DNA of 64,000 nucleotides from NCBI GenBank assembly GCA_039545335.1, contig BCIN01000003.1, forward strand, positions 1,499,941-1,563,940, in the 5' to 3' direction. Positions 13,124 to 60,348 of the stretch are shown here, in pieces (within the stretch, counting starts at the first letter, position 1; every line of letters begins with the position of its first letter). Under the pieces are notes generated by a model. The model did not search any database and was not told the DNA's origin. It saw nothing but the letters and a program-made list of their open reading frames with translations. This stretch comes from Kondoa subrosea. Its lineage: Eukaryota. A program made the translations under genes and the position numbers.

Positions 13124-14745
13124 ATGCTACGTATCATAGCGGCCATGCTCGCTCTATCTTTCGCCATGAGAGGCTATCTGCCAGCCATAGCAAGCAAAAC
13201 AATTCAAGGGAAAGGCGGTATCTACTCGTGTCATGGCATGACAGGCCCACATTACTATGACCACCACCATTCTCTTATGTTCTTCACCAGCATTGCACTG
13301 CTTACGCTCTTTTATGTGTCTGGCGGACTTGCAATCACTTACCCAATGCAAGTTTTNNNNNNNNNNNNNNNNNNNNNNNNNNNNNNNNNNNNNNNNNNNN
13401 NNNNNNNNNNNNNNNNNNNNNNNNNNNNNNNNNNNNNNNNNNNNNNNNNNNNNNNNCACCACCATTCTCTTATGTTCTTCACCAGCATTGCACTGCTTAC
13501 GCTCTTTTATGTGTCTGGCGGACTTGCAATCACTTACCCAATGCAAGTTTTGCATCGGAAACTGGGCCTGGAAATGTTATTGTCACTAGAGCAATACAAC
13601 TTCAAGACTGTTGCACAAGGGCAAAGAGAAGCGATGCGAATTTTGAAGTTATTGCGACAAGGTCAAGGTGTAAAAGCGGTTGTTTATTGGGTAGATAGAG
13701 CATGCGGGAGAGCCGAAGATGCAGCTGCCTCCGTTGAGGGCAACATCCGTGACAGATTGGTTCTGTCCGAAGAACCTGAACTATGCTTTGATGCCATTGA
13801 AATCGTGGCAGATACCTGCATCGACACTTTGTTAAACATGAAAATTGGGGACGTGAGCTGTTACAAGCCAAAGCAAATGCAACAGGTCGCTTCATTTGCT
13901 ATTCCCGGTTTCATTGGCAACATACTGTATCAACTCTTCTTTCTAAAGCATTTTCCTTCCGCCTTCACGAAACGGATGTTTCAGATTACTTTTCGCCTCT
14001 TTCAAGCACTGGTTCAATCACATCTGTACACAACTTTAGACTCCGACGATATTCACAACAGCTTCCAAATCTTGCTTATTGCTATTCATGGTCTGTACAC
14101 AGCAGATCCAGCAGCTTGCCAAGATGCCTGGGAGAGTCTTTCCACTTCTTGCAACAACGACTTCTTTCTTAAACTAGAAGCATACACCTGGCGCAAATAT
14201 CTTGCCAATAAATACCCAAAACCAGAGGATCAAGATTATTTTGGTCTACATTATCGGGTTGTTGTCGCACAAATGTTGGGAATGCAACCAGCCGATTGTT
14301 CTACCCGCTTTTCAGGATATTCGGGCTGCTACAAGCAGGTTTTATCAATTCAAGATCCGGTAGAAAGATGCGCTTTATTTGAGCGGATCAAGTTCGGTCT
14401 AGGTCAAAGGAGCGGTAAGCAGGTAGAATGCTTACATTTGGCATATCGGGCAGGCCCGCATGCGATCTCTGTCTGTTGTTATTGCGGTAAATCGGAGACT
14501 GTTAAGGAGGGATCTTGGAAGGTCAAGCGCTACAATCCCTGCGCCCATTGCATTGCTGTTACATATTGCAGTTAGTGCACGCCAGGGTAAGGCTCAGTGC
14601 AGTACTCATAGATTCTGCTACAGGCAAAGCTTGCGCAAAGAATGGTACGCTCTTTATTTTCGTTTTAGGTCTGATGTGAACGACTCACCGGGGAACAGAT
14701 CACCAAACTCATGCCCTGCGTTGCAGCAGAATCGCTCAGAAGTAA
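13124..14745 (+). CDS. MYND-type zinc-finger protein (start uncertain; spans an N gap)
   Basis: CCYCGK...PCAHCIAVTYCS|KACAKND|HQTHALRC after removing two short 3' introns gives a complete MYND pattern. Confidence 0.75.
13262..13551. other. 100-N assembly gap flanked by an exact 95-bp direct duplication
   Basis: 13262-13356 is identical to 13457-13551; Ns at 13357-13456. Confidence 0.95.
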
Positions 14746-15027: not shown

Positions 15028-17222
15028 TCACAGAGTTTCATGCAGAAGTACTCGCTTGCGCTGGGATCTTCCTGTTGAAGTAGCGGTAGCAACAGATGGT
15101 ACAGGAGAAGACCACGTTCTGCACGTCATGTTAGGCAAATCAAGCATCCAGATTGGAACATAAAACGCACTGCGTCGGCGTGTTATTGCAAGTTCCGTTC
15201 AGACCGTTGAGGTAGTCTGTGGTAGATTGACCAGCCGCTGGAAGAGGAATGAGGTTCATCTCGAGCAAAGTCTTGACGGAGTATTGGTAGAAGGTAATGA
15301 TTTCAGTGCCATCATATCTATCATCAAATTAGTTTAAGGCGACAAAACCCCAGTCATTGAGGACTGACCCTGTCGAATTGGTTTGCCAAGACCAGAACTG
15401 CAAGTCAAACAAAACCATCAGCAAGGCACCCACAAGAGATGTAATCTGCTTACGATGCCGCCTCCGCTTTTAGCATATTCAGCTGTCTGGACGGTGAACC
15501 ATTCGGTATCCCATTGACTATTGTTGACAATTGGGTTGATCAAGCTCCATTCGGTCTGCAAAATGGAAACATGAGCTGTGTCCATTACATACAGCGAAGT
15601 GACACACGATGGCAACTGGAACACCATAACCTTGATAAGAAGAAGTAGCAGAGCACAATTGATCAAGGAGAGTCTGTTCAGTGGCTGAAGTTCCGGTCAA
15701 AGAAGCTCCTCGGCCTATGTAAGGATGAATAGTGAAAACTAGAAGGCTTGGATCTGGGAAGGAAAATGTCAGCAACAACGATCAGCCTGTGAAACTACTG
15801 CTTACCTTTGCCAGCGATGAAAGGAGTCCAGCTACCGAGTGGATTGCTGTTTGGGCTGTTACGGTGCTAAAGTCAGAAACCAAGCAGTGCTAGACGGCTT
15901 GTACATACCTTCCAGGGTGGAACAGAAGAGGCACAGGATCAGCCATAGCTGTGGTCTTCTCATAAGTACGTTGAGTGAAGCCCATCAAAGTTTGGAATTG
16001 AGCATCGGTGTAGTCTGCTCTCAAGAATGAGAAGGGTACACACAAGAGAGACGGTGAAGCAGACTTACAGACTGGCTCATTGCAGTTCTCAAAGCCAGAG
16101 ATGACAGAGCGATAGGGAGAAGCTTCGATGTACGAGATGATTGCCTCGACCTCCAGAGATATTGAACTCATGTAATCTGAGAGATCTCGTAAAACGTACT
16201 GTTTGGTCGCCTAGAGCTTGATTGGCATCGCCATAGAAGTTGTTGCCGCCAGCATGCCCGGAAGCTTGTTCTCCATCTACCAGAAAAAGGTCAAACACAC
16301 GGAGCGCAAAACTCAAGAGGATATATACTTTGGGAACCAGGTAGACCATGGAGATCGATCAGCGCATAAATGCCATTCGCTTGACAGGCAGCTAGCACTC
16401 GAGTAAGTTGATCAACTTGACCAGCTTGGAAAGCATAGGGTCTATCACAAAGCAGCTGAGAGCAGCTCATTCCAAGAAAGTTCCAGCTTACGAGTTGTCG
16501 CCTGCTGGCTTTGGCAACCAAGCCCACCATCCAATGGGAATCCGAACACTAATGATCAGCATTAGCGATCAAGACCAAAAACCATGTGAGGATAAGTTAC
16601 TGGTTGAAGCCACTGGCAGCAATAGTAGCGATATCCTATCAAGACTGTCAGCTTCTCATATGATATTGTCGCAACTCTACTCACGGCATCAGTAACCCAA
16701 GTATTCCAATGTTCAGTGAGCAATTCCACCGCCCTCGTCTGATTGCCGACATTCTCCATCCAGGACCATTCGTCTGCAGCTGTGTCATTGCCACAAGTGG
16801 TTTCGAACTATACACATCCTTTGAGCCTCGACCTTAAGTAGGCTGTTCTTCCACTCACCCAATTCCAGTTCCTAGCAAAACACTTATTGGTGAGGAACAC
16901 AGGCTACTGGTAATCTGAGCTCACATCCACTTCTCCAGCAACAGCCAGTTGCCTGAGGTTTTCGATCAGTATGTCGGTCTTCCGCATAAGTCAATGCAAT
17001 GCATACCCAGAGCCACACCTGTGAAAGATCAGCTCTGATCCTAAACAGCAGTGAATGTAGAAGCCCACCGTGCATCTTCTGTGTCTGACTGGTCCAATCC
17101 CATTTTGTCAGGTTTGCTGATGTGCTAGTCGGCACAGCAGCTGAGGAGACAGCTGAAGCAGAGAGTTGCGCTTGTGCCAGGAGCGGCAGAGCAAATGTTA
17201 ATGCTGCAACAGCGAACTTCAT
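15028..17222 (-). CDS. Secreted glycoside hydrolase family 5 (exo-beta-1,3-glucanase-like), multi-exon
   Basis: Signal peptide MKFAVAALTFALPLLAQA; HWNTWVTDA, VRIPIGWW, IDLHGLPGSQ, acid/base NEP, nucleophile TEWS. Confidence 0.88.
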
Positions 17223-17653
17223 GGTGCTCGTAAGTAAAAAAAGATTAAATTAAAGAGGAGGCGAAGTCAAGAAGATGCCAAGCTCGAAATAGCAAAAGCT
17301 ACAAATGGGCTCGGCTCGCGCGCTGTTTTCGGCTTCTGCAAGTGACTTCATGCCTTCTCAAACCACTGAGTGCTGCAGCGCAGTGAGTTGGTGTCTTCAC
17401 CCTCAGAAATATACTTATCAGCTCACAGCATCTTGCCGACACTTCATACAGAGCAATCCAGCTCAATCTTTTCGCGTCGTTTCTCTGCACATACCTTCAC
17501 CTTCAATGGTGCCGCTACAGCCTTAATGTGGCACGCTACAACGGCGGAGCGACTTGCTTCATGACTCTTGATCTACGAATTCGGAAAGCGGAGCTCTCAA
17601 GCAAGTTGGATTGCATATACCACATGACACGCTCTGCCTGTTTGCATCTATCC

Positions 17654-18477
17654 GATGTCCTTAGAGGTCTCTACGATCCTCTTTCAATTCCGCGCAATTC
17701 TGAATGGTTGTCTTACTTGGGGGCTTTTTGCATTCTTCCCCCCCCCCTAGTAGATCCCTGTCAAACTTTGCACGGGAAGAGCACCTCAACTCGACTCATC
17801 AACTTCGGGAGAAGTCGAGGCTTAACGTTGAGGTGGGGCAATCTTGCGCGGAATTTGCTTCTCTCTTCGTCTTGGATAAGAATGATGCGCCGAGACTCGG
17901 GAAAGCAGCGCAGAGCAAGGCAATGACTTCGGATGCCTGTTGAGTACAACCTTGTGAAGTCGTTGCTGACCTGTGGTTTGACGAGTCAGGTCGTTGCCTG
18001 AGGGGTCAGTCTGTCGGTTCTTAGCGATGCAAAGGACCATTTTATCCGAGACAATGAGGGAAGATATCGCTTGAAAGCAAGGCTTGGCTGTCTAGAAAGT
18101 AACTTGACGGCGACCTCGGCGACGGCTAAGGATGCTGATAAGGATGCAATTATAACCGGCCAAGCCTGAGCGTGGAAGAGAGGAGGACCTAGACCGAGCT
18201 TTTCTTTCCCTTCTCTGATCAAGAGCAGCAAGTTCGGGTGTAGCAATACCTAGTCTTCCCTTCTTGAAGTCTAGGCGAACGTTCGAGATGCTGCTTACGA
18301 ACACCCGTCGGTGCGATTACGGTGCTTGTGTACGCTCGCATTAGATTGCTTGCGATGAGCTGGCATCAGGTCGCACCCGGTTGCAGTCTGCTGCAGCTCT
18401 TCTTTTCTCAGCTTGTGATGACAGGATGGCTATGTATTATTTCGCAAGAGAACGTTGGACATCCGCTCTGAGGCATC
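17654..18477 (+). ncRNA. Candidate large structured non-coding RNA of unknown class
   Basis: Nested complementary helices over ~820 nt (e.g. 17686-97/17844-55 12 bp, 17869-81/18040-52 13 bp, 17920-30/17956-66 11 bp, 18080-90/18157-67 11 bp). Wobbles are G-U on the + strand; no credible ORF. Confidence 0.5.
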
Positions 18478-18480
18478 CTA

Positions 18481-18503
18481 ATAGTTCCGCATAGTTCCGC
18501 ATA
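18481..18503. repeat. Short tandem repeat (ATAGTTCCGC x2.3)
   Basis: atagttccgc atagttccgc ata directly visible. Confidence 0.8.
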
Positions 18504-18517
18504 CTCTGCAATACGGT

Positions 18518-20682
18518 TCATGTGCCTCGTAATCTTGCCTCCGCAGCTCTCGCCCTTCGTTCCCTCTCCAATCTCATTTTGGCTTCTTCGCTCATGCCAG
18601 CGGTAGCTTCTTTCGCTTTTGCTTTAAGATATCCCGCAGCAGCGCCTCCAAGCTTTTGTGGTCCAGTTGAAGGCCTCGCGAGTAGTTCAGCAGCTTTCCT
18701 CTTTCTTTCCTCTTCCTCTCTTGCTTGTCTTTCCGCGTTCTCCTTTTCCCTTTCAATTTCTCTTTCTTTCTCCCTCTCACGCATCTTTTCCTTGAATTTA
18801 CTTTTCCTCTCTTTACCCTTTTCCTTCTGCTCTGTTTCTTGTTCTTCAGTCAAACCGCTAGGCACTCGAGCTGAATTCTGCCAATCAAGCCAATCTGGGT
18901 GTTCGTCCATACATCTTCTGAAAACATTTCTCGTAGCTCTTGTACTTGCGATCTCGTAAGCCGTCTTGCCTAAGGAAGATAAAACAGTAGGATCACTCCG
19001 ACAATCTAAGAGCAACCACCTGACAATTTGAGGTTGACCAGAACTACTAGCCAAGTGTAAGAGGGTAGGATTAGAGCCATCGATCAGGAAAGGTGGTAGA
19101 TTAGAGGTCCATTCCACTTCTGAATGTTTCTCGACAAAAGAAATCAATGCATCTAATCGACCTTTCCGGACCATATCGGCTACTCGCTCCCATCGACGGC
19201 GTGAGGTGATTTCTTCTTTTGATAAGACAGGTGCTGATGGAGCTTTCTCTTTTGATTGAGAAGCCGACGGCAAAATTTTGGGTGCAGCTTTCTTTGCTTG
19301 TTCCGCTTGATATGCTGCATCTAGTGCTGCTAGAGCATCAGAAGATAGATGTGAAGTCTTGATCTTGGTGAGCTCGTCGAAAGCTCGATGTAATTCAGCT
19401 AGAGTCTGTACGTGCAGGTTGTTCGGGCATTAGTGAATGCTAAAGCCTAATCACCACCACGTACAGGTCTGCGAGTAGGGAAAGGGAACGTCCTCATTCG
19501 TGAATCTTGTCTCGATAGAGGTGAATCATCATAATTGTAGAAGATCTTCGAATTGGCTTTGCTTGTTCGCATCCATATCAGCTCGCACGTCTTCAGCTTC
19601 GATCTCCAGCTATGCATCAGCGCTCGAACATCTTCTTGTAGAGCTGCTTCGTTGTATCGACGAATCTCAGCACCAGCTGATTTGGCATTGCCTTTGGATG
19701 CGTCGTTCTTTGATTGTGCACCACCTTGTTTCCGTCGGGCTGTGACAGAGCATTGGTAGTCTTCTACTTCCAGAGCTGACATTACTTACTAGTATACCGA
19801 TGATATGTCTTGTGTTCTAGCACAACCATTTCTCTTTCCAATCTCCCAGATTGCCTCGATACTTTCGGTACCAAACTAACAATCATAGCAGCAAAATGAC
19901 CACCACCAATCATAAACATAGCCCAAGTTCTTTCTTCCGTAGGTGTAGGATCAGGTAAAGCAGGTGCGATTTCACCATTCCTTGCCATGGCTGCTAATTC
20001 TTTCTTGTTCGGTTTAGGTATATCAGGATGAACTTGAATGGATGCAAGTGCTTTAGCCCAACCACCAGCTGGTTCGAGTGTACCTTTCTTGTCGTCAAAA
20101 GGGAAAATATGTCTGTAGATGCCTAATTGTGTATCGGGTAATAGACTAGAAGCAGTGAACCAAAGCAAAGGACTTCGAGGACCACGTGTAGAGACTTCTT
20201 CTATACTTGTTTCATGAACTCCATTTACTATACCAGAAGAAGAAGAAGAGGAGGTATCGCTTGAAGTATCAGAACCAGATATTGAGCCTTCAAGATCTGT
20301 ACGATGGACTCTCGCGTTAGCAAACGGTTTACTCCACACGAACGATGGCCGCACCTTCTGCCATTGCATCGAACTCTTCTTCCTTCACAGGCTTATTTGA
20401 AGATTTAGCAGATTTCAATTTCAGATTGTAGCGATGCCAATCTGATCTGAAATGTTTGCGTTGCTCAGTAACAGATGCTAGAGCTCCAATAGCACATGTC
20501 TGACATCCTAGACCAGTGACTACTTCATCTGAATCCTCTGTTGTCGAAGGTTTCTCAACTTCTTGTTCTTCAGGTCGATGTACAGTCCGTAGCGTGAGCA
20601 ACTCGAGGATCTCATTTGGTAGAGCGAAGGCATAGAGCGACCGAGCTAGCAGAGGATGCTTGGCTCCTTCTGATTCTGACAT
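18518..20682 (-). CDS. VMS1: Vms1/ANKZF1 ribosome quality-control tRNA-cleaving factor, multi-exon
   Basis: C2H2 CQTC...QRKHFRSDWHRYNLK; VLRF1 domain MIGGGHFAAMIVS, HKTYHRYT|ARRKQGGAQS..D, SAGAEIRRYNE, FPFPTRRP; ankyrin TLLHLA; C-terminal RERRARAAEARL. Confidence 0.95.
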
Positions 20683-33626: not shown

Positions 33627-36393
33627 ATGCCGCCCAAAACCAAGGATTCACCAGAGATCACTGCCTTAGCTAGTTCTTTTGAATCTTTTGGTCTTTCATC
33701 AGCCAAAGCTGTGGAAGTAGCTCGCAACACGAAACAAGCTACAGCTTTTAAGGAATACTTGTCCCTTGAATCAGAGCAATTGCAATCTAAAGCTGGCTCA
33801 CTCAATTCTAAGCAAGGCAACCTACTCTTCCAGCTTGCTACTAGTAATGAGACTTTGAGCGAAGAGGGCAGAGGATTGATTACAAAGGAAATATTGGATG
33901 AACGCTTGTTATCTGCAGATCAAGTCACAGGTCAGCTGGTTCTTCGCTGTAGCATCTTAAAGATGCTCAGGCTTCAGAATTGGCATGACAGAGGCTATCA
34001 AGTACTGCTCAAGTAATTCTGAGATCAAGCAAGATGAATTCGAGAAAGCTACTGGTATTGGCTACTCCATCACACCAGAAGAGATTCAAGCTATTGCTAG
34101 AGATTGGACAGGTCAACGTAAAGAAGAACTCGATCTAACTCGTTGGGCAGGAATAGGCAAAACTATGGGTGCTTTGAAATCAATCGCTTCTTTACGTTGG
34201 GCTGCTCCTTTGGATCTCAAGACTGCTACGGAAGCGGTTTATCTGGAAATCTTCGGTCCTAAAGAGGATAAAGCTACTTTGAAATCAAGGCAAAAGGTAG
34301 GTTTCTTCGATTGCTCTTTACCTTATGTAATGAGCGTGATCGCGGACTCTACAGGAAAAAGTTAAAGCTTCTAAACCTGAGGCATCCACTTCAACTCTCG
34401 CAGCAGCAAACTCAGCAGATTCTTTATCCGAAACCAAAATGTTTGAAGAAGGTTTCCTAGCTCGTTTACATAAACCAGGAGAAAACCCACAAGCTAATCC
34501 TGATCGAATGAAAGAACACTTATCTTTCACTCAAGGCAAAGTTTTCACTCGTTTCCCTCCTGAACCAAATGGTTATATGCATATCGGTCATCTGAAAGCT
34601 TTGGTTATCAATTTCGGTTTTGCCAAACATCATGGTGGTCATTGTTATTTACGTTATGATGATACGAATCCTGAAGCGGAGAAACAAGTTTATATTGATG
34701 CGATTTTGGAAAGTGTTAGATGGTTAGGATTCGACCCGTTTCAAGTCACTTTTGCTAGCGATCATTTTCAAAGATTGTTTGATTGTGCAAAAGAATTGAT
34801 CAAGAGAGGTTTGGCTTATGTGGATCATTCTACTGGTGAGTTCTACTTTCCCATCGCTCGTCGAGCTATCGGGTAAGGGTCGGACTTACAGCGGAGGAAA
34901 TGAAGATTCAAAGAGGTGGAGAAGAAAGAGGTCCTAGAGTTCCTTCGAAATGGAGGGACAGACCTATTTCGGAATCGTTGGAAGAATTTCAAGCTATGCA
35001 AGATGGAAAATATCAACCTGGACAAGCCGTTTTACGAATGAAGCAGAATTTGGAAGACCCAAATCCTCAAATGTGGGATCTGGTGGCATATCGAGTACTC
35101 AATACCCCTCATCATCGAACTGGTGATCAATGGAAAATATACCCTACATACGATTTCACGCATTGTTTGAACGATAGCTTCGAGAATATCAGGTTCGTCT
35201 AGGATTTGGCTATAAGCGAAGTGCATCGCTCAAGCCTAAGTCTCGATACGAACAGTCATTCACTTTGTACCGTCGAATTTATCTTATCTCGCCAATCATA
35301 CGAATGGCTCTGCGATGCATTAGACATGTATCGACCTCGTCAATCTGAATATGGTCGACTCAACTTGCAAGGTACAATAACATCGAAGCGGAAATTGAAG
35401 AAGCTCGTCGACGATCATCATGTCAAAGATTGGGATGATCCACGTCTCTATACTTTAGTCGCTCTTCGCAGACGTGGTGTTCCTCCTGGCGCTTTAAGAG
35501 CTTTCATCAACCAGCTCGGCGTATCTACAGCCCTTACAACTCTTCCTCTTGTCCGTCTCGACTCTACTATCCGTCAATACCTTGAAGTCCACACTCCTCG
35601 ACTGATGCTCGTTCTTGATCCCCTCAAAGTTACATTAGAAAACCTGCCAGAAGATTACGTAACGATGATCGAACGTCCCTGCCACCCAAAGAACCCAAAC
35701 ATGGGAACAACCTCTGTTCCTTTCACTCGAACAGTTTATATCGATCGATCTGATTTTCGGGAAGAAGATTCAGCAGATTATTTCCGTTTAGCACCTGGGA
35801 AATCAGTTGGTCTGCTATACAGCGAAAGACCAATCACATGCACATCTTTCAAGAAGAATGATCAAGGCGAAATTATCGAAGTGATTGCCAAATTCGAGAA
35901 CGAAGGACCGCTTTTCAAACCGAAAGCTTTCATCCAATGGGTCGCAGAACATAAACCTAGTGGAAGTCCAGTCATTGTTGACGAAGCGAGAATGTTCAAT
36001 CCACTCTTCAATACCGATAACCCAGCTCAAGCAGATGATTTCTTGGCTGATCTGAATCCAAACTCGTTACAAGTAGCAAAGAACGCGATGGTTGAGATCG
36101 GTATATGGGATGTAGCTACCCAAGGCCTGAAGGCGGCAAGAGAGGAAGCGAAAGAGCGCGAAACAATAGCCCAAAGCGATAAATCTGCCTCGACTCCAGC
36201 TATTCAGTCTTCAGATCTTGTTGGATTTGAATGCGTTCGCTTCCAGGGTCTCCGAACAGCCTACTTCTGCGTGGACAAGGATTCGAAGATCAAAGCGGTA
36301 GAAGAAGGGTCAGAGAAGGTGTATCACTCCGAGGTAGACAGACTGGTTCTCAACACTATTGTTGGATTGAAGGAGGATAGCTCGAAGAAATGA
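33627..36393 (+). CDS. GLN4: Glutaminyl-tRNA synthetase, multi-exon
   Basis: [76 protein letters not shown]. Confidence 0.97.
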
Positions 36394-36493: not shown

Positions 36494-39400
36494 TTACTTC
36501 AATTCATGCTCTTGCTCGCTGATCTCCAGGTTTTGAGCCGGATCAATGCTCATTTGTGCATCTGTAAAGCGCTCGGGATGGAACTCTCTCTTGACGAAGA
36601 TGGTGTATTCAGCACCAAAGAAGCGAGTGCGAATGTTGGCGATGACGAGGCGGAGAAGGAAGGCCGCCGCTGTCCAAAGTAAGCCGCCAACGGGACTGTA
36701 AGTGGTCCCAAGCAATTTCAGATCCAACGGATCATAGTGATCGCAATGACACTTACGCAGCAACGAAAGCGCCAAAGGTAGACCAGTCCGAGGCGTATAT
36801 GCCAGACTCAAGAATGAGAACACCTGCTGCTCGAGATGCATCGCCATTGTAATAGACCAAGCCGAAAAGGAAGACGGTGAACAGTCCTGTAAGTCATCGA
36901 GTCTCAACTGAGTGCTTGCACAAGAGATCCAATGGCTTACCTCCTAAACCACCAACAACCACATCAAAGCCGTTCATAAAGTACAAAGCTGGTACCAGAC
37001 CGAGCAAAATGGGTGGAAAGATGGCAGCCGAGACCAGATCGGAAATGAGGTAAAGAACCAGGATATCCTGTCATTGCTATCAGCGGACGATTCTCCAAGT
37101 ATCGGACATTTCGTACCAAGTTCAAGGTAGCCACAACAATAGCTGGAATGTTGACCAATAGGACCAGGCGAACCCACCAAAGATTGAGCTTGTTTCGGAA
37201 AACATCATTGCTGATTGAAGCGACAATGCCGCATTGCAGAGTATCGTAAGCTGCACAAGACATGCAGATGGCGAAGATGATACAGAAGCCAACCACCCAA
37301 GCTGGAAGTAAAGCGATGAGGTAGAAAAAGGCTGAAGAAGCTGCAACAGTATCGGCTGGATCGACAGCTCCTGACCACTGTATGTCGTGCATGGTCGTGA
37401 GCTAAGAGGTAGCTATCGACTACGTGCAACATACGACAGCGAGCATGCCCGTAATGCCAACCAAAACAAGGATGATAAAGACAAAAGCTGCTGCCAATGA
37501 GCATCCAACCCAAAGATCTAGGTACGTGTTAGTCAGCGCACATAGCTTGTGGCTGTGTGCAGGCGGACCTTTGTCGGTCTTCGAGGAGAAAGCTCGCTGC
37601 CAGAAACCAGTCAAGAAGTAATAGTTTGTTATGACCTGTCAGGTGGTCTTCAGACAGGACGCCAAGAACAATTACATGAAGTAGACTGACAGCAACAGGC
37701 AGGACTGAAAAGAGCATTAAGCTAGCACCTCAAGTAAGAATCATTGTCACATACTATATAATAGTTGCCATCCGAGCAAAGTACTGCCAGTCAGATTAGT
37801 CGAATTGACGATAGCTTGATCCTGTACACCACCATCAGAAAGAAGCTCAAAGACTAGGCGAAGTCTGTGGCGACGCACGATATTGACTTGAGTTCCCACA
37901 GCAATACTGCAAACGATGAGTAGGATGACAATCATGACTCCTTGAACATTGTCAGTAATGAGTGAAGTTCGGAAGCCACCAAGCGCTGCGAGTCAGAACC
38001 GGGTACCCATTAGCCTAAGTCAAAGCACCGTCTTTGCACTCACCAGTATAGATCAAAGTAACTATGACTTCTACGATCGTAGCGGCCAGACCACTCATTC
38101 CAGTTAGACCAGTGACGACGTAAGAGATCGAAGTGAGTTCAGAACACATGTAAATGAACTGTTCGCTTCACTTCAGCTTGATCAGTGGTACTGAGGGAAG
38201 TATCTTACGAGAGTCAAGACAGTGCATGCACCAACAAACAAAGCTGGAATGACGCCAAATCGCTCGCGAACATATTCAGTCAGAACGAAACCATGAGGAC
38301 AAGCTTTTCGGATCTTGCTAGCCAAATACGGGAAGGTCATAATGGGAATAGCTGAGGCGAACTGTCAGCATCGAGGCCTCACATCAATGCTAAATTGATT
38401 TCGCCTCTGTGTTCACTGACAGCGTATATAATGATTCCTTGAACTCCAGCAATGGTCCCAATTTGCGGATACTGACTATGCATCAGCAAAGTCCTAGCAG
38501 GAATAGCATGAACATACAGTGAACAGAATGCCAGAACCAAGACCTGGAAAAAGTCAAGTCAGTATGCTCAGTCAATTCTTACGAATAAAAGCGCCAGCGC
38601 GGAAAAAGCTTGTGGTAAAGCCAAACAAAGCATTTCGAAACATCGAAGTGGGATTTCCATTGCATCTCCTTTCCGCGCGAATTATCGCTTTCAAGTTCAA
38701 GCAGTTTTTCCTTTTTTGAATTAGGAAATCTCAGCCATTAGAGCAGGGATTTTGTTCCATTCCTTCTTCGCTAATCTCTGCTTGGCATTGCGCTGACATC
38801 CTTGATATGACTTCTCCTTTGTACAAGCATTAACCCTCTTCTCATCGACGAGAACGAGGAGGGTAGAACGCAAAAGCAGAAGTTATATCAAGGAAAGGCA
38901 AAAGAGAATTGTGAAGCAGAAAGGAAGCAAAGCCTCTCTATAGCACCCGCGATGCAAAGTGTCCATATATATTTCGATATTTCGCTTTGTGCAACTTGAC
39001 ACCAACTCTTTGAAGAAATTTCGACATACATTGATTTTGTGAGGATGAATGCAGTCTCTTAGCTCAAAGAGTTGTTTGTAGGTAAGGTAAAAGAGTGCTT
39101 CTGTGATTGTCCGCTCGAATTGTTCCGATCGCCAAATTTGGGTTTCCGTCAAACTTTCCGATAGTCATTGTGTAACTAACCAGAAGCAGCGAAATTGAGA
39201 GCCAAAGGGAAGGCTAGAATAACGGATTAGTAGCAGCCTGGGCCAGGAGGGCAGGACAGACCAGTCTGAGTACGAAGAGAGCTTAGATAATCTCCCTTGG
39301 AGTTCCGAAAACGCCAGCCAACAGCGAGACCGAAGATCAAGAAGACGCTGTAGGTAGTGTAGATGATGCCATTCGAGGCAGGTTCAGAAGGGAAACCCAT
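36494..39400 (-). CDS. Sodium:solute symporter, DUR31/NCU01977-type (probable thiamine transporter), multi-exon with one 637-nt intron
   Basis: MGFPSEPASNGIIYTTY..., YLSSLRTQT|AFPLALNFAAS|GLGSGILF, GGFRTSLITDNVQG, GFWQRAFSSKTD, CAAYDTLQ; carries an intronic TPP aptamer. Confidence 0.85.
38660..38957 (-). promoter_or_regulatory. Intronic TPP riboswitch aptamer with very long P3 arm
   Basis: RNA reads UUGCAUC(P1) GCGG GUG CUAUAGAG...~200 nt...CUCUAAUGG CUGAGA [hairpin] AA CUGC UUGAA CUUGAAAGCGAUAAUUCGCGCGGAAAGGA GAUGCAA(P1'). P1 is 7 bp, P2 is GCGG/CUGC, and the UGAGA and AUAAU signatures are present. Confidence 0.88.
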
Positions 39401-56729: not shown

Positions 56730-59700
56730 TCATCGTCTACCGCTCGATCGACTGGTCTGAACCTCTGGCTTGAGGCCGGTGGCTTGTGCTACTGCTGAAA
56801 GAACATTCGTTATGTTTGCTTTGTCGCTCAAGACTTTGAAACTGGCGTGCCCTGTTGTCCGTTGTTTTGACGCTGTCATACCCGATAAGATGGATACTTC
56901 AGGAAGAGATGGTCGTGTAACATTTTCGGGTTCCAGATCAAGCGATTCATCGGCTGCGTAGTCTGGATATTCGCGCTTCCGAGGTGTCAGCCCTGTTGAT
57001 ATATCTTCTTTGATTTTTGAAGATAGGAAAGATTCAGATTGCTTATATAGAGCCGTCAATTTGCCTTGAAGTTCTGAGGCTGAAACTGAGGCATCGTCCT
57101 GGAATTGTGAAACAGCTTCGAGCACGGCAACTGAAGCCGCTTCAGACGTGCTTGCAAGATCATCAAAACCAGTTCGTAATTGTCGACAAGTTTCTTGTGC
57201 GCGCGCTATCAGTGTACTGGATGTTTCAAGCTGGACTTTGTGATTCGTTGCATTGGTCTCTTTGTCTGCGAGGCTGTTAGCTGAAGATCCATCGATAGGA
57301 ATAGACTTACAAGTCACAGCTTTATGGGCCAAGTCAATACCCAAGGAAGCGCTCTGGGCAGCGAGTGGTTCAGCGATTGATGCCTGATCTTTTCCGGATA
57401 TGCGTATTTGCTGCTCCAACAGTACTCCTGTTTTGCTCATGGTCTATTATGGAAATCAATACACTGTACAAGCTTGTCATCAAAGAGAATTACCTCAGTT
57501 TGCGACGAGGTCAGACTTGACACCTCTTGATTCATAGAGCGTATTGATTCCCCTGCCTTTTCGGCTTGGGAAAGCAGAAGCTCCAGATCAGTTGACCAAG
57601 ATTTGTGGGCTTTCTTGGACGCGGAGTGAGAGGTTGCAAGTCCAGTATGTACTGATTCAATTGAGGCCGAAAGTGCAGAGGTTCTTAACTTTCTGAAACC
57701 ACTGATTTGCGCTGACACAGACGCGAGGAGAGACTGTTCGAATCGATCCAGATCTGCTTGCTGCTCGTCGACTATTTGTTGCAGAATGGCATTCTGAGCT
57801 TTCAACCGCTTATTCTTGATCACGACGTGAGTTCGGCTTGCGATTTGTATTTGTAAAGGCATTTAGCTCACCTCTTCTGCTTGAGCAAGGCTTTCTGCTT
57901 CTTGCCTCTTTCGAATAGCCGCAGCATTACTTTCTAATAACGTAGAGGTGGACTTCGAAGTATTACTCGACATCGCTGCCAGTTCCTGGAAGGCCGTCGA
58001 TGTCTCGTCCAGGCTATGAGATCATGTAGTTTGATAGAGTAGATCAGCTTACAGTGGACATCATTTCCTGACAAACAGACAGGATCTTCTCAGCTGACGT
58101 AGCAGATACGGCTTGGGATTGAGCAGCATGAAATGAAATAGCCGACTGCAAGCTTGTAACCGCTGATTCCACAGCTTGAACAAAATTGCTGGCCAAAGAA
58201 AGGGCATGGGATGAAGAAGTGGACGCTGCGGCCAACTCTTCTGCAAGGTTATCTTCTTGAGCTTGGAGAATAGCTTGATTGACTTGAATCAGCTTTGCGT
58301 GCTCTGAGGCATCCGCTTCAACCGCTTGTGCAAGGGATGAAGCAAAAGACTGCTGCGATTCGGCAAGCGAGCTGATGTCGGATGATATTGTACTCGTTGC
58401 AGTTCCAATGTTTCTTCTAGCTTGAGCAATAATAGCTGTGTTGGAAGATTCAACGGCTTTCTTGCGGGCTGTGCGACAAAAATCTCGCTTAGGTTCACCT
58501 TCGCGACCTAGCGAAAATACTCACATATTTTCTCTCGCAAGCCTTCACTATCCTGTATAGCTTGGCCTGCGCAAGACTTCCACTCTTTTCTACTTTGAGC
58601 ATTTCTCTGCCTCAAAGCTGTCTCTTGCTCCAGCTTCGAACGCCAGTCGTCCAATTCCATTCTCAAGTCCTTCACTTGACTAACATTCCCTTCCAGATCC
58701 TCTGCTAAACCTTTGATTTCCCCATCCTTGGTAGTCAACAACCTCAGTGAATGCTCAAACTGTTCACTCATAGTCCGAAGTTGCATATCGAGCAAATCAG
58801 CCTGTCTTTTCGTCTCATCCAACATAATCCTTCTTCCTTCATGTTCAGAAGACATTTCAGACCAAGAGTCTTGACTTAGGTAAATTCCATTCTTCTCTCT
58901 TGCTGCTATTAAATCCGCTTTGAGCCTTTCGATTTCGGTAGCATATTGATTTAGCAAAGCATTACGAGTGATCTTAGCATTAGCTTCTGGTCGATTTTGA
59001 ATAGATTTAGCGCGTAAAGCGTAATCGAGAGTAGACAGGGTTTCTTCGAGATTGGAACGAGAGGAAGAGATTGTTGCTATGATGCAGGTCTTGGTTCTTC
59101 CGCCTAGCGAGTCTTGCAATAGTCGAGTGAGCTTACTTTCCCTGTGAATCAAGAACATCTGCTTAGCTTATTAATAAGCGAAACAGACTCCTGATCTCAC
59201 CTATAAGGAATATGCGCATTCTTCTCAACCAAAGCATTGATGACTCGGCCAAGAGTGAGCAAGCTTTGATTAATCATGCCTGCTTCTCTTGCTCTTCCTT
59301 CTTTAGCTCCACTTCGTCCAACATTCTCGCTTCCCGCCAGATCGACCAAATTCATTTTCCCAATCTTGAGTAAATCTTCGGCAGCCTTGTTGGACGAAGG
59401 ACCATTTGAGGAGGAGTTGGTAGATTCTTTCATGTGTACCGTGATGGAAAAAACGGAATGCGAACGAGATGAGCGATCATTGCAATTGGTGGCTGCGATT
59501 TGTCTTCTTCTTGAACCTCTAGTAAGAACTGTGATACCTTCTGCAGCTGAATTGATCAACGTTTCTTCAACCCCTTGAATGATTACACCTTTCTTGGCCG
59601 AATCATCGAAGATCTTCAATTCAGGTTGTTGCATTTGAGCATCTGGTGTTAGGTCTAGACTTGTTGCGCAATTGAGATCGCGAAGCTCTTCATTGTACAA

Positions 59701-60348
59701 TTCAACGAAAGAAACTCGAACGGAGAATTCGGTTTGTTGTCTTTCTTCCAGCAAGTGAAACAAGCGATACAAAGTGCGTGGAATGACACCTGCTTTGGAA
59801 GAGAAACCACCCAAGACTGGAGTAAGATCACCTTCTGTTGTGAAGGTCTTGCCTGATCCAGTTGCGCCATAAGTGAAGAGTGTACAATTGTAGCCAAGCA
59901 GAACTTCATCCAGTAGCGGCGAAACGACTTTCTCATATACAAGGGCTTGATCTGCGTCCGGCGAGAAGACATGATCAAAAGGGTAGATTTTCTCTGAGGA
60001 GTTGGAAGGTGTAGCAGTAGCTTTAGCTGAAGATAGAGAGGGACCTAATGGATTTGCTTGAATAGGTGGAGCAGAAGAAACAGCGTTATTGGTAGCGATG
60101 ACTAGCTGATCACTTCTTGTGCCATTCGTCCGGACTACACAGTCGTCCGTGAGGGTTTCATTACCTCGACATCTGACTGCAACTTGTATGCTTGATGATT
60201 CAATTCGACTGCTTCCTAGACTATTCTTGCTGGTCTCTTCTGTACTCGGTCTCAGTGTTCTTGAAGGAATTCTAGCTGTAGCAGCAGGTCGAACAGAAGG
60301 TTTTCTGGATCCAGGTAGCGCAGACGAGGTCTTTGTTCTTGCAGCCAT
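56730..60348 (-). CDS. Kinesin-5 (BimC/Cut7-like) mitotic motor, multi-exon
   Basis: [78 protein letters not shown]; BimC-box [10 protein letters not shown]. Confidence 0.95.

Follow-up and report, generated by a model that had tools for sequence, protein, structure and literature searches.

Whether the spacer between a GH5-like gene and VMS1 holds the gene of a large structured RNA is the question raised by this locus. An earlier note proposed, at 17654-18477 of the + strand, one closed RNA of 824 nt in which a closing helix surrounds four domains (D1-D4), and suggested a telomerase RNA or a new class. Coordinates are those of the window, the whole stretch of 64 kb that was analysed, which is eukaryotic and intron-rich. 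The spacer (17223-18517, 1,295 bp, no strand assigned) shows a start codon on one side and a stop codon on the other, and is without a convincing ORF. Both flanking genes are on the - strand: the ATG of the GH5-like gene (17222-17220) forms the left edge of the spacer and the stop codon of VMS1 (18518-18520) its right edge. The naming of the two flanks in the earlier note holds for VMS1, which matches bVLRF1 at E 7.4e-9 and has ankyrin repeats, and is only weak for GH5, where a single downstream exon matches PF00150 at E 0.0014, with 18.7 bits versus a cut-off of 23.5. By eye, the N-terminus of the GH5-like protein, MKFAVAALTFALPLLAQAQ, looks like a signal peptide. The same note spoke of mostly tiny intergenic spaces, which is correct in part: other ORF-poor gaps of 0.65-1.36 kb occur in the window and, therefore, the length of the spacer is not anomalous.

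A search with the C-terminal 303 residues of VMS1 gave 160 relatives at E<=1e-10 out of 8,000 candidates. The best are 44-45% identical and belong mostly to Pucciniomycotina (Meredithblackwellia, Cronartium, Mixia and Rhodotorula), and no near-identical protein is present among the matches listed. The protein atlas likewise indicates Basidiomycota. Since the relatives are mostly Pucciniomycotina and reach only this identity, the host appears to be a basidiomycete of an isolated lineage, to which none of the collections searched contributes a close relative. Of 303 pattern matches to the C-terminal exon of VMS1 in a metagenome scan, none was confirmed as a relative, and a scan with the VLRF1 exon gave a single weak match, 55% over 22 residues, in a contig of 1,367 bp (L001) which is of no use for synteny. 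Two further features of the region were recorded. A tandem duplication of a 10-mer (18479-18500), with two full copies and a partial third, separates the candidate from the stop codon of VMS1 and probably belongs to the 3' UTR of this gene. At ~13350-13450, a run of 100 N shows the same coding sequence on either side, with the peptide ...HHHSLMFFTSIALLTLFYVSGGLAITYPMQV present twice; this has the look of a gap in the assembly whose edges were duplicated and, for this reason, the 483-aa ORF at 13124-14575 is probably artificially lengthened.

The locus shows a GC content of 0.51, the highest of 302 windows, and exceeds the 15 longest ORF-poor gaps, which range from 0.42 to 0.48. Its CpG observed/expected ratio, 0.90, ranks 84 of 302 and compares with a mean of 0.84 over the window; an old methylated repeat, to be recognised by CpG depletion, was discarded on this ordinary value. 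The element includes the C10-UAGUAGAUCCCU region. The C10 run (17738-17747, + strand) is the only run of C8 or longer in the window and is predicted to pair partially with GGGGG at 17719-17723, and a T5 run is located at 17725-17729. No second copy of any part of the locus was found in the 64 kb, where the best other matches are of at most 19 nt, with E>=0.84. None of the ORFs of the spacer looks coding on inspection of the translations, and Pfam gave no family below E 0.078 for the 15 stop-to-stop ORFs. The longest ORF with a start codon (132 aa, 17528-17923) had 22 candidates, none of them a homologue at E<=0.01. Read with the mitochondrial code (table 4), the spacer contains a 334-aa frame (17249-18253) with four TGA translated as W; it shows no Pfam family and was set aside as chance. 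A tRNA-derived element was also rejected, since no tRNA was found anywhere in the window.

On the + strand, 17654-18477 folds with -312 kcal/mol, and none of 20 shuffles is as good (-280.9+-6.7, z -4.66); 30 further shuffles gave -278.6+-8.4 and z -3.98. The - strand reaches -259.4 kcal/mol and z -1.96. The comparison with shuffles on both strands, which the earlier note had put forward as a check, comes out in favour of structure on the + strand. The + strand ensemble shows a diversity per nt of 0.165, versus 0.273+-0.052 in shuffles, and 34.5% of its bases are in pairs with p>0.9, versus 16+-7.5%; the corresponding values of the - strand, 0.267 and 15.8%, are shuffle-like. Folded alone, with 200 shuffles for each strand, D1 gives z -3.68 on + and -3.59 on -, D2 -3.39 and -2.31, D3 -4.66 and -3.21, and the whole of D4 -3.27 and -1.14, with 25 of the 200 - strand shuffles of D4 as good as the native sequence.

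The same locus was then placed against the rest of the window, using a fixed grid of 824-nt windows every 412 nt on both strands with a regression on GC and G+T. No other window folds as stably as the exact candidate. Relative to the energy expected from the regression, the candidate is lower by 3.6 residual SDs, the best of 296 controls by 2.7 and the unselected overlapping window at 17717 by 2.2. In a test with 544 dinucleotide shuffles of the grid windows, the native windows of this genome scored much as their shuffled versions do (mean z +0.22, sd 1.05, minimum -2.83, n=296) and, therefore, the shuffle null is fair. On the native-window scale, the candidate stands at -3.3 and window 17717 at only -1.87, inside the native range, so the signal needs optimised boundaries. 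Local structures were predicted with RNALfold and SVM z-scores at a span of 200. At z<=-3 they occupy 22.5% of the + strand, and within the candidate 88%, which is the window maximum; the adjacent window at 16741 follows with 78% and then a separate one with 67%. Each domain alone is ordinary for the window: D1 and D3 (z ~-4.4) are beaten by many loci, coding ones included, the best of them reaching -6.85 at 38777-38921.

When the boundaries were optimised throughout the 64 kb (RNALfold, span 850, both strands), 5,321 local structures reached a length of 600 nt or more. The top locus is + 17551-18235 (685 nt, -261 kcal/mol, z -4.32), followed by structures with z -2.96, -2.93 and -2.90; the boundaries of the earlier note give -3.30. 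By these predictions, the locus is a genuine fold outlier at the scale of the 64-kb window and is not strong enough at genome scale. With the locus at ~4 native SD, and once the number of windows is taken into account, we estimate a p of ~0.001-0.02 per 64-kb window, so that chance alone would give several loci of this kind in a genome of tens of Mb. Structures with z<=-3 run on leftwards on the + strand over 16776-17532, through the promoter of GH5 and over its first exon in antisense. Because of this extension, any + strand transcript might be longer than the unit first proposed.

Two other structured places of the window were recorded. The strongest local structure of the window is an imperfect hairpin of ~200 nt at 38735-38945 (-73.3 kcal/mol, z -5.36 with 200 shuffles), equal on both strands (RNALfold z -6.85 on + and -6.54 on -). 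It is located in an ORF-poor stretch (37529-38885 shows no frame of at least 90 aa), has no sequence in common with the candidate, and may represent either the precursor of a hairpin RNA or a relic of foldback or MITE-like type. In the span-850 scan, the large fold ranking second lies at 58474-59318 of the - strand (z -2.96). Several hairpins with z -4.6 to -5.9 are found at 59089-59263, beside the 5' end of an ORF (59197-60348, - strand) whose translation reads as kinesin-like.

The minimum free energy (MFE) fold of 17654-18477 contains 277 pairs, 39 of them G-U, and one of its 11 single mismatches is C.A. Most of the helices quoted in the earlier note are present in this fold. The closing helix is among them, with 17654-57 paired to 18474-77 and 17659-66 to 18466-73. 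Its probability is 0.97-0.99 with the ends first proposed and 0.00 in the three longer contexts (17500-18600, 17223-18517 and 17000-18900), which add 100-650 nt of flank per side, so it does not stand as a helix free of context. The 5' arm (17654-17666, + strand) pairs only if the RNA ends exactly there, and the 3' arm (18466-18477, + strand) is 41 nt from the VMS1 stop codon and probably lies within the VMS1 3' UTR of the opposite strand. Two helices of D4, AAGAGC/GCUCUU and CGGGUGU/ACACCCG, are not predicted, with probability 0.00 in all four contexts; CCUAG/CUAGG and GGUGCGAUU/GGUCGCACC, also of D4, are in the MFE fold.

The remaining parts are more robust, all of them on the + strand. D1 (17686-17855) shows a perfect closing stem of 12 bp without G-U (17686-97/17844-55), contains the C10 run, and has inner stems of 9 bp (17782-90/17827-35) and 6 bp (17791-96/17813-18); the probability of its closing stem is 0.49-0.92 over the four contexts and its RNALfold z is -4.40. 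D2 (17869-18052) has a closing stem of 13 bp with two G-U (17869-81/18040-52), of probability 0.85-0.96 over the four contexts, and two inner hairpins, one with 13 bp (17919-31/17955-67) and the other at 18016-22/18032-38. D3 (18080-18167) is closed by 11 bp (18080-90/18157-67) with probability 0.99 in all four contexts. In D4, only the hairpin at 18310-18377, in which GGUGCGAUU/GGUCGCACC is continued by a 6-bp extension, is robust, with probability 0.95-0.96 over the four contexts and RNALfold z -3.71. Since the closing helix depends on context and the robust parts are D1, D2, D3 and 18310-18377, the object is, as far as folding predicts, a row of independent hairpin domains over 17686-18377 and not a demonstrably closed multi-branch RNA. 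The closed four-domain RNA of 824 nt has to be abandoned, with its closing helix lost in the three longer contexts and two D4 helices never predicted. RNALfold favours other long-range closures, 17551-18235 and 17459-18294. The G-U pairs at imperfect positions, taken earlier as a sign of selection on RNA, do exist, but they are not independent evidence for the strand, because the folding program itself favours G-U pairs.

Rfam 15, with its families of snRNAs, U3, snR30, SRP, RNase P/MRP, telomerase, riboswitches, ribozymes and rRNA fragments, was matched nowhere, whether at E<=1 over 16500-19500, at the gathering score over the entire window or at E<=10 over 17500-18560. Short motifs of U1, U2, U6, the CR-I of RNase P/MRP, and m1 and m2 of snR30 also gave no match. 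The lack of U1-U6, U3, SRP, RNase P and RNase MRP motifs stated in the earlier note agrees with these results. A box C-like GUGAUGA (18415) and a box D-like CUGA (18468) are found 47 nt apart on the + strand (18415-18471). A box C/D snoRNA was rejected here, as the flanks, AGCUU and GGCAU, form no terminal stem by eye; the pair is probably chance, being expected in 1.3 kb.

The telomerase RNA suggested by the earlier note was searched for by its expected elements, the first being a template complementary to at least ~1.3 telomere repeats. CCCTAA, CCTAAC and TAACCC are absent from both strands of 17223-18517 and, since a TTAGGG-type template of at least 8 nt must contain one of them, the spacer has no such template. 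CCCTAAC is absent from the entire window, and CCCTAACCC with at most one mismatch has its sole match at 34871, outside the locus. A Sm-type A-U(4-6)-G, to be expected near the 3' end, was found on neither strand. The P6.1-like AGAG-N5-CUCU gave no match either; this pattern derives from the vertebrate P6.1 and may not fit the lineage. A TTAGGG-type repeat was assumed for the host. For comparison, the available text on Ustilaginales gives a telomerase RNA (TER) template 5'-UAACCCUAA-3' and, for UmTER of Ustilago maydis, 1,291 nt with a template/pseudoknot domain and a CR4/5 domain containing P6.1 (PMC9564094). The portion available for Malassezia describes an AAUUUUU Sm-type site in Ustilaginales and Malassezia TERs, lengths of 483-2,470 nt, with MgTER of ~483 nt, and telomere motifs that vary, as in Malassezia (PMC12506658). 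A third source gives TAAC(4,5) telomeres for Cryptococcus and Kwoniella, and reports that no telomerase RNA has yet been identified in Kwoniella (PMC11185503). As far as UmTER and MgTER are described there, the locus resembles them in being long, ORF-free, structured, single-copy (here within 64 kb), located between protein genes and of comparable size. It differs in that neither the template (5'-UAACCCUAA-3' in Ustilaginales) nor the AAUUUUU site nor a P6.1-like hairpin was found, and in not being in the 3' UTR of a same-strand upstream gene.

That the stretch is the telomerase RNA of a basidiomycete is therefore not supported, because the TTAGGG-type template and the Sm site are missing, no hairpin of the vertebrate P6.1 pattern was found, and Rfam shows no telomerase match. 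The size of the locus falls within the basidiomycete TER range as far as the available text gives it (483-2,470 nt, PMC12506658), the locus is structured, GC-rich and ORF-free, and no TER of a close lineage is named in the titles or abstracts of the 15 papers listed. Against these points, the absence of the template hexamers from the spacer and of CCCTAAC from the window, together with that of an AAUUUUU-type Sm site, an AGAG-N5-CUCU hairpin and a telomerase family in Rfam, makes this identity extremely improbable. It is kept just above zero because telomere motifs vary, as in Malassezia, and the TTAGGG-type repeat is an assumption for this host.

Three other explanations compete with that of an ordinary spacer. 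If a lineage-specific structured ncRNA of ~0.7-0.8 kb were transcribed from the + strand, diverging from GH5 and converging on VMS1, it would string together three to four long hairpin domains and serve as a protein scaffold or as the precursor of smaller RNAs. It would account for the top outlier of the window (z -4.32, with z -4.66 and -3.98 against its own shuffles), for a + strand ensemble that is well defined where that of the - strand is like shuffles, for D2, D3 and D4 folding better on + than on -, for the highest GC of the window and of the ORF-poor gaps, and for a single copy in the window without ORF, Pfam match or homologue. Nevertheless, no known RNA family or RNP-binding motif is present, the ends are undefined as the closing helix changes with context, the significance is at window scale only, and the strand asymmetry is partly expected from picking the best + strand locus with G-U allowed. 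Such an ncRNA seems rather unlikely on this balance, and we hold with equal reserve, as a tentative proposal, that 17686-18377 (+ strand) may be the core of a new large structured RNA, specific to this lineage and present in no Rfam family. The large + strand ncRNA is a candidate drawn from the folding of a single sequence. MicroRNA-like RNA loci of fungi are clustered small-RNA precursors with long hairpins; the locus, a row of independent hairpins of 70-180 nt on one strand, is like them in form only, and its stems are interrupted and branched, not simple. Fungal conserved structural RNAs have been described, in the parts of the two sources available, as motifs obtained by genome comparison and covariation (PMC5640933, PMC8216456). 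The locus has in common with those described there a GC-rich non-coding stretch with a predicted stable structure, and differs from them in being known from one sequence and in having no Rfam 15 match.

The hairpins could also come from the inverted repeats of inserted or locally duplicated DNA, such as a non-autonomous mobile element or a solo LTR. Solo LTRs and non-autonomous relics show terminal repeats, TG...CA ends and target-site duplications, and the locus is like them in being a discrete 0.8-kb unit, GC-rich versus all the other ORF-poor gaps, whose closing helix is an imperfect terminal inverted repeat with TG...CA at 17656/18475 and 5-bp flanks, TCCGA and TCCTA, identical at 4 of 5 positions. 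Short direct repeats, arms of the GAAGTC type, recur in D1, D2 and D4, and taking out ~0.82 kb leaves a spacer of ~0.47 kb. However, the combination of TG...CA, inverted repeat and 4-of-5 flanks has 35 occurrences in the window, and each of 10 shuffled versions gave 15-34; it carries no weight, because it is equally frequent in shuffles, and the solo-LTR signature was rejected as evidence. Unlike solo LTRs and transposon relics, the locus has no second copy in the 64 kb and no coding remnant, of either transposase or reverse transcriptase, and its CpG ratio is the ordinary one already given; a mobile relic is thus a distinctly improbable origin. More improbable by far is a cis-acting RNA structure in one of the flanking - strand mRNAs, located in the 3' UTR of VMS1 or in a long 5' leader of GH5. 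The right end is only 41 nt from the VMS1 stop codon, D4 is probably under the VMS1 3' UTR, and D1 is equal on both strands (z -3.68 and -3.59), but over its full length the - strand folds weakly (z -1.96) with a shuffle-like ensemble, and D4 on this strand (z -1.14) is equalled by 25 of 200 shuffles.

The preferred reading, to which we give somewhat less than an even chance, is that of an ordinary spacer made up of sequence upstream of GH5 and downstream of VMS1, without a dedicated RNA gene. The spacer would hold the upstream control region of a secreted GH5-like gene (start 17222, - strand) as well as the 3' flank and 3' UTR of VMS1 (stop 18518, - strand), and would by coincidence combine the highest GC content and the highest density of hairpins in the window. 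Transcription of the + strand, if any, may for example diverge from the GH5 promoter and converge on VMS1; if so transcribed, D1, D2, D3 and the hairpin 18310-18377 would form as a by-product, without a function of their own. In favour of an ordinary spacer, the closed 824-nt form arises from the choice of ends, and no Rfam match, Sm site or box C/D pair with a terminal stem is present. T runs terminate Pol III, and the T5 run at 17725-17729 argues against a long Pol III transcript. Against it, the locus is clearly first with optimised boundaries (z -4.32 versus -2.96) and stands at z -4.66 and -3.98 versus shuffles, with a + strand ensemble better defined than theirs. Four structured domains are also adjacent, with 88% cover, and the GC content of 0.51 is the highest of 302 windows, a value not expected of a fungal promoter. 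The absence of a function for the hairpins is what we infer, whereas the helices, the fold statistics and the lack of a known family are direct results of the analysis.

The case mainly illustrates the limits of single-sequence folding: the locus leads a 64-kb window on several fold statistics, yet the architecture quoted for it hinges on the chosen ends, and its significance is lost on correction to genome scale. Large structured RNAs of eukaryotes beyond the classical set are rare and, if the alternative of a dedicated RNA were true, a structured RNA of 0.7-0.8 kb would represent a new class, from a lineage of fungi that has been little sampled.
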